Origin: a virus
Lineage: Duplodnaviria; Heunggongvirae; Uroviricota; Caudoviricetes
Strand: one strand, 5' to 3'
DNA: 42,682 nt
Virus record (IMG/VR): IMGVR_UViG_2703718834_000012
The stretch's first letter is position 1. Every line of letters begins with the position of its first letter. The notes beneath the pieces were generated by a model. It saw only the letters and a program-made list of their open reading frames with translations, made no database searches and was not told the DNA's origin. Position numbers and translations under genes: made by a program. Positions 26,062 to 28,058 of the stretch are shown one piece after another.

Positions 26062-26816
26062 CAGTAAATCCCTCTTTTTTCATCGCTTTGGAACCAGGAT
26101 GTAAAAGGGCTGTTCCGATAACTATCATCTGAGAGCAAAACCAACAGTTCCATGTTCATTTCAGCTAAAACCTGCGGATCAGCAGTTTGGGCTCTAACGA
26201 TGAATGCATTGTCATCATCTCCACCAAGATAATAGCTAACACTTGAACAGTTAATACCGCGCTTGTTCGCAATCTCTTCAGCTTGATCGCAAAGGGCTTC
26301 TAGTTCTCGAGAAGAAAGACGGGTAGCGTTTTTGAAATCAACAATCTGTTCAGCCATATAATTTCCCTGATTGATTATATCCTCTCGCTCTTGGCCATCA
26401 TAAAGAGCAGCCATTTTGAGGGAGAACTTTTTAACCAACTTGTCGTTGCCGATACAAAATGCAGCGTTTCTTGCTACAAGCCTCAGTTCATGTGAAGGGA
26501 AAAGCTCAACTATTCTAAACAACTCAACGCGATGCTCATAGTTATGAGCCGAACGAGAAAGATACGCCAAGTAGTTTTGTGCGATCGTTGGACTCCCAGA
26601 GCTCATCGCGTCTTTGAATAAACGTACTGCATCAGAGTGACGCCCGAGAGTTCCATTAAGCCATGCATACGCATGTGCGCGCTCACTTATTGGAAGTTTA
26701 GCAATGTCGTGCTCAATTTCCGCAATAGTGTCTGTATCCGGGACTTCTCCCTTCTGGAAGTAATCGAGGATTGTTGCAAGCAGTTCTTGTTCTTTTGACT
26801 CAGGCTGTCCTGACAT
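26061..26816 (-). CDS. Hypothetical protein, accessory cassette gene 1
   Basis: 251 aa; AT-rich codon usage unlike neighbouring phage genes; no signal peptide or known motif. Confidence 0.55.
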   Translation of the reverse strand: MSGQPESKEQELLATILDYFQKGEVPDTDTIAEIEHDIAKLPISERAHAYAWLNGTLGRHSDAVRLFKDAMSSGSPTIAQNYLAYLSRSAHNYEHRVELFRIVELFPSHELRLVARNAAFCIGNDKLVKKFSLKMAALYDGQEREDIINQGNYMAEQIVDFKNATRLSSRELEALCDQAEEIANKRGINCSSVSYYLGGDDDNAFIVRAQTADPQVLAEMNMELLVLLSDDSYRNSPFTSWFQSDEKRGIY

Positions 26817-27162
26817 AATTTTCCCGAAGAAAACTAAATTCTGTATGTTTTCAATAGCTTCACTGGATAGGTTTTTATATTGCTGTCATCAGTATTGAAG
26901 CTTTTACGGGATTGTACAGGACCATCAGCGTTCTACTTGTGCATAAGAATTTAATAAACCTACAGACTTATCCACAGAAAAAAGAGTTATCAACAAAAAA
27001 AGTTATTCACAACTTAACTAATAGCAAAATATTGTTGATAAGCTGTGCGTAATTATCATATCCATCAAACTTACGCACATTAGAGCCTTGTGTTGCCTAT
27101 CCATCGTTTTTTCCTATCAAAACGAAACGACATGCTTTTCTGCGATTAAAAAAGTATTCCGC

Positions 27163-27193
27163 AAAATTAAAAAACCCGCTCACTGGCGGGTTT
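27163..27193 (-). terminator. Strong rho-independent terminator downstream of Q-like gene (tR'-like)
   Basis: 8-bp stem 27172-27179/27186-27193 followed by TTTTTTAATTTT on the minus strand. Confidence 0.6.
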
Positions 27194-27226
27194 ATATACT
27201 GTTGGCACAATATCAAATTTACACGA

Positions 27227-27255
27227 AATATATGCTAATTAGTTCATTTTTGCAA
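27227..27255 (-). promoter_or_regulatory. Candidate late promoter (pR'-like)
   Basis: Minus strand TTGCAA-N17-TATATT straddling the Q stop codon, about 40-50 nt upstream of the terminator. Confidence 0.3.
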
Positions 27256-27928
27256 TACCTTGCTGATAGTTTGCTGCCTTTTGTTGTGAACGTGATCGCG
27301 AAACATGAAGTAGCGCCTTGGAGTCGAGTCCCTTATACAGGCTGATAATTACATTGTAATGTTCCACGTAATTTTGAGACCAGTTTGTTTTGTTAACTCC
27401 CACCAGCGCAGCCAGATCACCATATTGATAGACATCACGCCCAGCCAATTCAGCCTTCACATCCTGTGCCGCCAGCCAGATAAGCTGTCGCAACCGTTCG
27501 ACGGTCTTCTTCGCCACCTTCCTCCCGGCCAGATGCTCGCAAAATTTCGACCACGCCCACTGAGTAATCAGCACCTGATTATCCCAACTCACATTCTCGC
27601 TATAGTTCCATAGCAACCAGGCCTTCTGGTGTTCTTCGAGCGTCATCAGTGCGCGGCGCCACGATGCCGTTGAATACTCAACCGGTTGCACCAAGGGAAT
27701 ATGCGAACCCTTGGTATGCGACTGTTTGCCGGGAATCGGTGGGTTATCAAGCGTAATCATTTTCCCGGTCACTTCATCCAATATTCGAGGCTTCTTACGT
27801 TTAAACGTTCCCGTATCAAACTGCGCGTTCTCAAGCCACGCCATCAACTGCCCTTTCGTCGCACCACTTAAATCGGCGGTAGCCACCATCAGCTGCTGGC
27901 GCACGTATTCGAGGAATTGAGTGTTCAT
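27239..27928 (-). CDS. Putative late-gene antiterminator (Q-like)
   Basis: 229 aa; sits between RusA and the late operon; recalled resemblance to Q-family antiterminators. Confidence 0.5.
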   Translation of the reverse strand: MNTQFLEYVRQQLMVATADLSGATKGQLMAWLENAQFDTGTFKRKKPRILDEVTGKMITLDNPPIPGKQSHTKGSHIPLVQPVEYSTASWRRALMTLEEHQKAWLLWNYSENVSWDNQVLITQWAWSKFCEHLAGRKVAKKTVERLRQLIWLAAQDVKAELAGRDVYQYGDLAALVGVNKTNWSQNYVEHYNVIISLYKGLDSKALLHVSRSRSQQKAANYQQGIAKMN

Positions 27929-28058
27929 ACAGCACCGCCTATGGTTTTGATGTAATTTTTCAGTATCCGGTAGTCCGTTAGCACAGAGCCGGGAAAGTGG
28001 TATAAGCGAAGCCGCTGCCAGCGAACGCGGAGGTGATCGGAAAAACAGGATTCAAATG

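Follow-up and report, generated by a model that had tools for sequence, protein, structure and literature searches.

A probable late-gene control region of the phage 82 type in an Escherichia coli lambdoid prophage

The Q gene and the genes downstream

The region described here lies in a viral sequence of 42,682 nt (IMGVR_UViG_2703718834_000012), referred to below as the window, and every element of the unit, i.e., the Q gene, the promoter and the terminator, is carried by its minus strand. The Q gene (27928-27239, minus strand) encodes a protein of 229 aa, which matched PF06323 (Phage_antiter_Q) over its whole length with an E-value of 1.2e-97, the sole Pfam family returned, and PHROG 304, 'anti-termination protein Q-like', at 1e-98. 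Its amino acid identity to the Q protein of phage 82 (X92588) is 68% across all 229 residues. The Q82 family, PF06323, is one among three unrelated Q families (PMC9388147, PMC7171158), and judged by homology, the gene upstream of the promoter is a full-length Q82-family antiterminator. A search of NCBIfam gave no match for Q, and no solved structure was matched when a 2026 copy of the PDB was searched with the Q sequence (phmmer, E <= 0.01).

The source of the window was identified as an E. coli prophage using a 1151-nt query (26800-27950), which was 100% identical to strain VE-F5; its identity to NADC1036 was 99.9%. Few E. coli genomes carry the exact unit (9 of 5426), and six of these matched with at least 80% coverage. 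The RefSeq gene order of the identical prophage follows the usual lambdoid arrangement of replication genes, nin-region genes (DUF1367, NinG, YlcG) and Q. Past Q it continues with two hypothetical genes, a methyltransferase, a further hypothetical gene corresponding to the holin, a lysozyme, a DUF2514 (Rz-like) gene and the terminase small subunit. The Q open reading frame, the lysis genes and the terminase are all intact in the window prophage. An 85-aa open reading frame with a TTG start on the plus strand (27088-27345) runs antisense over the terminator, the promoter and the 3' end of Q and is in all likelihood spurious.

Downstream of Q and of the terminator that follows it (tR', described below) lie two overlapping genes of 251 aa and 134 aa (26816-25657, minus strand), which belong to PHROGs 17809 and 5176 of unknown function. 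Neither open reading frame had a match in Pfam, PADLOC or NCBIfam. A second intrinsic terminator follows these two genes at 25641-25622 (minus strand; -13.1 kcal/mol, z = -3.9), and a third is found at 24390-24371 (minus strand; -12.0 kcal/mol, z = -3.4) between the methyltransferase and the holin. An earlier, sequence-only reading of the window had listed two further hairpins ahead of the holin and rated the one at 24390-24371 as weaker; both are real, and the lower rating does not stand, with -12.0 kcal/mol for this hairpin compared to -13.1 for the second terminator and -12.0 for tR' itself. The holin (24326-24024, minus strand; PHROG 1350, 2.5e-24) and the lysozyme (24027-23491, minus strand; PF00959, 1e-25) are probably the first lysis genes that the pR' unit would serve. 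With three intrinsic terminators preceding them, late expression needs a terminator-resistant polymerase, in agreement with the earlier proposal that it requires antitermination.

The 251-aa/134-aa gene pair, together with tR' and the intervening spacer, moves as a cassette behind three different Q/promoter types, and its GC content is below that of the Q region. The pair resembles moron-like cargo and occupies the position of the toxin genes in Stx phages. Between Q and the holin of the window, in contrast to some Stx phages, ARAGORN detected neither tRNA nor tmRNA.

The spacer between tR' and the gene pair, about 340 nt long, has a GC content of 34-36%, compared to 51-55% in Q and 39-46% in the downstream cassette, so the AT-rich stretch that had been noted past the terminator is real. 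It holds a cluster of DnaA-box-like 9-mers (26938-27041). All three perfect TTATNCACA sites of the 42.7-kb window, in which about one is expected, occur here within 74 bp (26938-46 on the minus strand, 26968-76 and 27003-11 on the plus strand), and another two boxes, TTATCAACA, each with one mismatch, are arranged as an inverted repeat of 10 bp (26987-96/27032-41). The cluster is adjoined by an imperfect palindrome (27044-27079) with 16-nt arms that are 81% complementary and with the core TGTGCGTAA...TTACGCACA. Such a cluster could represent a DnaA-controlled promoter or a roadblock for the downstream cassette; conservation of the boxes is uninformative because the other carrier prophages are about 99% identical here.

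Promoter, pause element and terminator

The end of the Q gene overlaps a promoter-like sequence, pR', composed of the -35 hexamer TTGCAA (27255-27250), a 17-nt spacer (27249-27233) and the -10 hexamer TATATT (27232-27227), all on the minus strand. The -35 hexamer is located inside the last Q codons (Ile-Ala-Lys), and the TAA stop codon of Q (27241-27239) falls within the spacer, as had been read from the sequence before. Hexamers of this kind are by themselves not above chance, with eight promoter-like sites in the 9 kb between 22 and 31 kb compared to 11.7 ± 3.5 expected from shuffled sequences. What argues for a genuine promoter is homology together with conservation. PhiR47_2, which is phage 82-like, has exactly the same TTGCAA and TATATT, and phage 434 has the same TTGCAA. 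Assigned through homology, the start site (+1) would be at 27220, the seventh base past the -10 hexamer, giving a transcript that begins with AAA (27220-27218, minus strand). At least part of the Q-binding element (QBE) probably lies in the spacer. The spacer sequence co-varies with the Q subtype, differing between the window type, the NCTC13148 type and the ECONIH4 type, and the QBE and pause element of 82 have been placed within -31 to +30 (PMC4914094).

On the plus strand, TTGCAATACCTTGC (27250-27263) overlaps the pR' -35 hexamer and fits the CII-box pattern TTGC-N6-TTGC, antisense to Q; in the record of phage 434, the equivalent site carries the annotation 'paQ / CII binding site'. The box pattern was set aside as evidence, as its three matches in the window, compared to 3.3 expected, are uninformative by themselves.

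Conservation was analyzed among relatives obtained by scanning IMG/VR with the Q protein. The scan returned 394 relatives, of which the best 80 (73-100% amino acid identity) were fetched and combined with phage 434, PhiR47_2 and NCTC13148, yielding 68 distinct sequences in a gap-free alignment on the promoter. Across these 68 loci, TTGCA of the -35 hexamer is conserved in 99-100% and each position of the -10 hexamer TATATT in 94-100%; between -35 and -19, the overlapping Q codons partly confound conservation. Further downstream, +1 to +3 are A in 88-100%, with the A at +2 and the T at +4 both reaching 100%, TGATAT at +6 to +11 is conserved in 96-100%, the T at +14 in 100%, and the C at +17 and the T at +25 each in 96%. 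Many of the remaining positions from +12 to +31, including those around +25, are only about 50% conserved. The spacings, 17 nt between the hexamers and 6 nt to the start, are invariant in every locus examined. At the sequence level, this conserved pattern is the signature of the positions that experiments have shown to be functional in the pR' of phage 82. A terminator follows in nearly all relatives, and it is formed by at least five unrelated hairpin sequences.

The initial transcribed sequence of phage 82 pR' has been dissected experimentally. The wild-type transcript begins with AAA, which leads to stuttering; pausing is induced by a -10-like element with an extended -10, located 9 bp downstream of the position that the element has in lambda; GCC at +15 to +17 is required for the pause, as demonstrated by mutagenesis; and the pause occurs at +25/+26, with U preferred at +25 (PMC5001585). 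The Q gene of PhiR47_2 is 98.3% identical to that of Q82 at the nucleotide level, and the corresponding sequence of this phage, AAATCTGATATTTTGCCAATGTTGTAC, fits the published 82 numbering exactly. After the same hexamers and spacings, the window reads AAATTTGATATTGTGCCAACAGTATAT, and all the published 82 features are found at identical positions: AAA at the start, the extended -10-like element TGaTATTGT at +6 to +14 (27215-27207, minus strand), the GC-rich, discriminator-like GCC at +15 to +17 (27206-27204, minus strand), whose bases and positions are those of the 82 element, and U at +25. By homology to phage 82, the extended -10-like element is a putative sigma70 pause element, and sigma70-dependent pausing, with Q loading, is predicted at +25/+26 (27196-27195, minus strand). 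If the mechanism holds, the pause and the action of Q would depend on TGATATTGT and on G15-C17, and late expression would depend on TGATATTGT.

The promoter is followed shortly by the intrinsic terminator tR' on the minus strand, with its stem at 27193-27172 and T-runs extending to 27163. The hairpin, AAACCCGC-cagtga-GCGGGTTT, followed by TTTAATTTT, folds at -12 kcal/mol (z = -3.9 compared to shuffles) and is the top-ranked terminator-like site between 22 and 31 kb, which bears out the strong terminator proposed earlier. Relative to the presumed start, the stem covers +28 to +49 with a GC core at +31 to +46, and the U-tract covers +47 to +52 and +55 to +58. The stem begins 34 nt past the end of the -10 hexamer, and the U-tract ends 52-58 nt from the inferred +1, so that an RNA of about 53-58 nt is predicted.

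Such a transcript had been called unusually short, a description that the comparison overturned. The same short layout is found in phage 434, in 34 of 35 ECONIH4-type loci and in one locus of the Q-lambda type, and as far as sequence can tell, leaders of about 55 nt are common and established at pR'. A pattern scan for the hairpin with its flanks matched at least 120 viral contigs, about 30 of which carry a 434-type promoter and many of which carry another promoter type (the ECONIH4-type clade). In the Q-lambda-type locus (L102; PF03589, with a AACGATGGG pause element), the same hairpin is located about 30 nt from the start. Within the Q clade of the window, the leaders of close relatives are mostly about 70-90 nt: among the best 80 relatives, 49 of 57 distinct loci have a stem that starts at +46 to +62 and ends at +63 to +84, and the short leader was found only in the window's own contig. 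Late units of the Q82 family accordingly fall into two classes by leader length, one with an RNA of about 55 nt and the other with an RNA of about 70-90 nt.

Several observations were made on the hairpins themselves. The loop of the terminator CCCGCC-NNNGA-GCGGG, equivalent to 27180-27185 in the window, varies freely at three positions, where AGT, GAT, TAT, AAT, ACC, TTT, ATC, GAC and ACT were seen, with constant stem and flanks (loci L088-L167 and L208-L259); this hairpin also terminates unrelated genes in other viral contigs. Most relatives with long leaders (L005-L083 and L085), including PhiR47_2, have a possible small hairpin at about +13 to +37, past the pause element and ahead of the terminator. 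The 5' arm of this hairpin begins at the GC-rich segment. The hairpin is absent from the window, whose RNA can instead pair +8 to +14 with +19 to +25. The arms vary by subclass (UGCCA/UGGCA, GUCG/CGAC, GCUGCC/GGCGGC), with registers one base apart. No consensus structure was obtained by RNAalifold for the +1 to +48 leaders of the long-leader relatives, as their two classes of hairpin are not in register. In Rfam 15, no match at gathering score was found for 24.0-28.5 kb. The sub-threshold hits Trp_leader, Leu_leader, P26 and JPX were rejected as chance; among them, the Trp_leader match (23.1 bits compared to a threshold of 41, E = 0.21, over 27166-27252), is attributable to the terminator hairpin.

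Mosaic structure and competing explanations

The similarity of the window to most of its Q relatives ends at about 27202 (+19). From the pause element onward, the sequence is common to three prophage types, those of the window, of NCTC13148 and of ECONIH4/1368KP, which have different Q genes and different promoter spacers. Over 27255-26800, the ECONIH4-type strains share 96.7% BLAST identity with the window. The shared block comprises the two downstream genes in addition to tR' and the AT-rich spacer of 340 nt, and an aligned stretch of 376 nt (the spacer and the first codons) is about 99% identical. Comparison of the three sequences placed the crossover within the shared GCCA at +15 to +18 (about +14 to +19), at the pause element. 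Read from these alignments, the unit is a mosaic in which a Q/promoter module has been joined to a short-leader tR' with its downstream cassette; Q, the promoter and the pause element would stem from a lineage in which leaders of about 70-90 nt are usual, and the rest from a short-leader lineage. Given a crossover at +15 to +18, Q, the promoter and the presumed QBE stay together, and the terminator and cargo are exchangeable. The presumed match between Q and its QBE is deduced solely from the position of this crossover downstream of the promoter. In this way, the conserved pause element would double as a recombination joint for swapping Q/promoter modules and late-region cassettes.

We propose, with a probability of about 0.9, that this region controls the late genes of an E. 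coli lambdoid prophage with a phage 82-type Q. This reading builds on what was observed directly, namely the homology of Q, the presence, spacing and conservation of the cis-elements, the terminators and the late genes downstream. A resemblance to the lambdoid pR'/qut/tR' unit had already been suggested by the sequence-only reading, and it is now backed by homology, with a Q82-family Q, the anatomy of 82 pR' and late genes downstream. The start site, the pause, Q binding and loading, the termination efficiency and the read-through are assigned here from the phage 82 literature (PMC5001585, PMC4914094). On this model, sigma70-RNA polymerase would initiate constitutively at pR' with +1 at 27220. 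Sigma70 would then re-bind to TGaTATTGT at +6 to +14, and the complex would scrunch and pause at +25/+26. Without Q, the polymerase is expected to resume and to terminate at +28 to +58, releasing an RNA of about 55 nt. Once accumulated, Q would bind its DNA site in the promoter region and join the paused complex, giving a terminator-resistant polymerase. The modified polymerase could subsequently pass tR' and the terminators at 25641-25622 and 24390-24371 to reach the holin, lysozyme, Rz and terminase genes.

The about 55-nt pR' RNA may in addition act in trans as an Hfq-binding sRNA in the lysogen, similar to StxS. This is compatible with late-gene control by Q and is unlikely, with roughly the standing of a long shot. 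In its favour, a rho-independent terminator with a U-tail closes the RNA, the predicted fold has two hairpins (-17.2 kcal/mol, z = -3.4), and StxS provides a precedent for a pR'-tR' RNA that gained an sRNA function (PMC7547250). Against such a role, the RNA has no Rfam match, the pause element at the 5' end and the terminator at the 3' end fill it and leave almost no free seed sequence, and the bases between these two elements are not conserved across relatives. In the short-leader class, the position of the hairpin is fixed at +31 ± 1, 3-6 nt past the +25 pause. That the RNA is an Hfq-binding sRNA, or that a hairpin at +31 ± 1 is mechanistically coupled to Q82 loading or sigma release, is a speculation to which we give little weight; if such coupling were true, it would define a distinct sub-architecture of Q82-type antitermination.

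It was also considered that the sequence is canonical and yet non-functional, either by recombination of incompatible parts or by its presence in a cryptic prophage, which we regard as very improbable. The mosaic junction does fall inside the pause element, the short leader is unique to this contig within its Q clade (best 80 relatives), and few E. coli genomes (9 of 5426) carry the unit. The crossover (+14 to +18) nevertheless falls past both the promoter and the -10-like hexamer, so that Q, the promoter and the presumed QBE were probably co-inherited, and the hybrid pause element retains TG, TATTGT, GCC and U25. The Q-modified polymerase is moreover not terminator-specific, the lambda tR' having been used with the Q of 82 (PMC4914094). 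Phage 434 works with the same short arrangement, and Q, the lysis genes and the terminase are intact.

The least credible explanation, which has next to no chance of being correct, holds that the hexamers are fortuitous, that the hairpin merely ends the Q/early-right operon and that the true late promoter lies elsewhere, for example within 26817-27160; promoter-like sites are indeed not enriched over shuffles, and the 340-nt AT-rich spacer is roomy enough for a promoter, with its clustered DnaA boxes hinting at regulation, but the hexamers, spacing and pause element are 94-100% conserved in the 68 distinct loci and match the experimentally defined 82 pR', a search of the minus strand of the AT-rich stretch gave only two 8/12 hexamer matches, and the stretch travels with the cassette behind three Q/promoter types and therefore cannot be a Q-specific late promoter. 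A late promoter at this place had been named in advance as the outcome that would speak against pR', and it found no support here.

The phage 82-type control region thus proposed is a canonical, previously unannotated member of a well-characterised system. Its value for annotation is that it shows where the window prophage has its late promoter, its pause site for Q loading and the first of its late terminators, and that it defines the Q-dependent genes, i.e., the two unknown genes, the methyltransferase, and then lysis and morphogenesis. The mechanism of Q82 was still listed as open in 2022 (PMC9388147), and natural variants with a terminator only 3 nt past the pause could be convenient minimal templates for studying it.

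Comparison with known systems

Phage 82 is among the closest known systems. Its Q belongs to the same family, and the hexamers TTGCAA and TATATT, the 17-nt spacing and the overlap with the Q stop codon are as in the window, as are the AAA start, the extended -10-like element at +6 to +14, GCC at +15 to +17, U at +25 and the terminator before the lysis genes. Compared to the phage 82-like PhiR47_2, 47 of 62 positions match from -35 to +27, with no indels. The terminator stem of PhiR47_2 is at about +52 to +74, giving an RNA of about 80 nt, whereas the stem of the window is at +28 to +49 and its RNA is about 55 nt. PhiR47_2 also has the extra small hairpin at about +13 to +37 ahead of its terminator, which the window does not have. 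The -10-like pause hexamer is TATTGT in the window and TATTTT in the phage 82 type, and relative to phage 82, the window has about 3 kb of extra genes (the two unknown open reading frames and the methyltransferase) between tR' and the holin.

In phage 434 (OL657226), the Q protein is Q82-like and 229 aa long, TTGCAA-N17-TATACT spans the Q stop codon and the pause element is AAATTTGgTATGTT. The homologous hairpin of this phage, AAACCCGC..GTGGGTTTTTTTT, begins at +28 and is annotated as 'terminator' in the same record, and 64 of 87 positions match the window from -35 to +52. It differs from the window in its downstream genes, in having GTA rather than GCC at +15 to +17, and in a Q gene that is about 67% identical at the DNA level. 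Phage 434 is viable and forms plaques (PMC9119081).

The ECONIH4-type prophages (E. coli ECONIH4, 1368KP and many IMG/VR contigs), which form a divergent clade of the Q82 family, match the window from the pause element onward. The core stem starts at +30 to +32 in 34 of their 35 distinct loci, with three different hairpin sequences. Their Q is 32% identical to that of the window and matches PF06323 at 5e-41. Their promoter lies about 30 nt past the Q stop codon and has another spacer sequence (L084 2970-3060, L208-L259), whereas that of the window overlaps the stop. The -10 hexamer is GATATT or CATATT, and three features are retained: TTGCAA as the -35 hexamer, the spacing of 17 nt and TGATAT in the pause element.

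A unit of the lambda type (PF03589) or the phage 21 type (PF06530) was considered and rejected, as Q matched PF06323 only and the initial transcribed sequence is of the 82 type. The pause element of the lambda type, the sequence seen in L102, is at +1, and that of the window differs from it. The logic of the lambda pR'-qut-tR' unit (6S RNA) and of StxS in Stx phages is nevertheless alike, with a constitutive promoter, a promoter-proximal, sigma70-dependent pause for Q, a terminator directly behind it and a short by-product RNA (PMC9388147, PMC7547250). The Q families of lambda and Stx phages, PF03589 and PF06530, are unrelated to PF06323 of the window, and the lambda pause is at +16/17. Lambda 6S RNA is terminated at about +193 (PMC4914094). 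Leaders are far longer in these systems, with lambda having about 193 nt and Stx phages having 258 nt (PMC7547250), compared to about 55 nt in the window.
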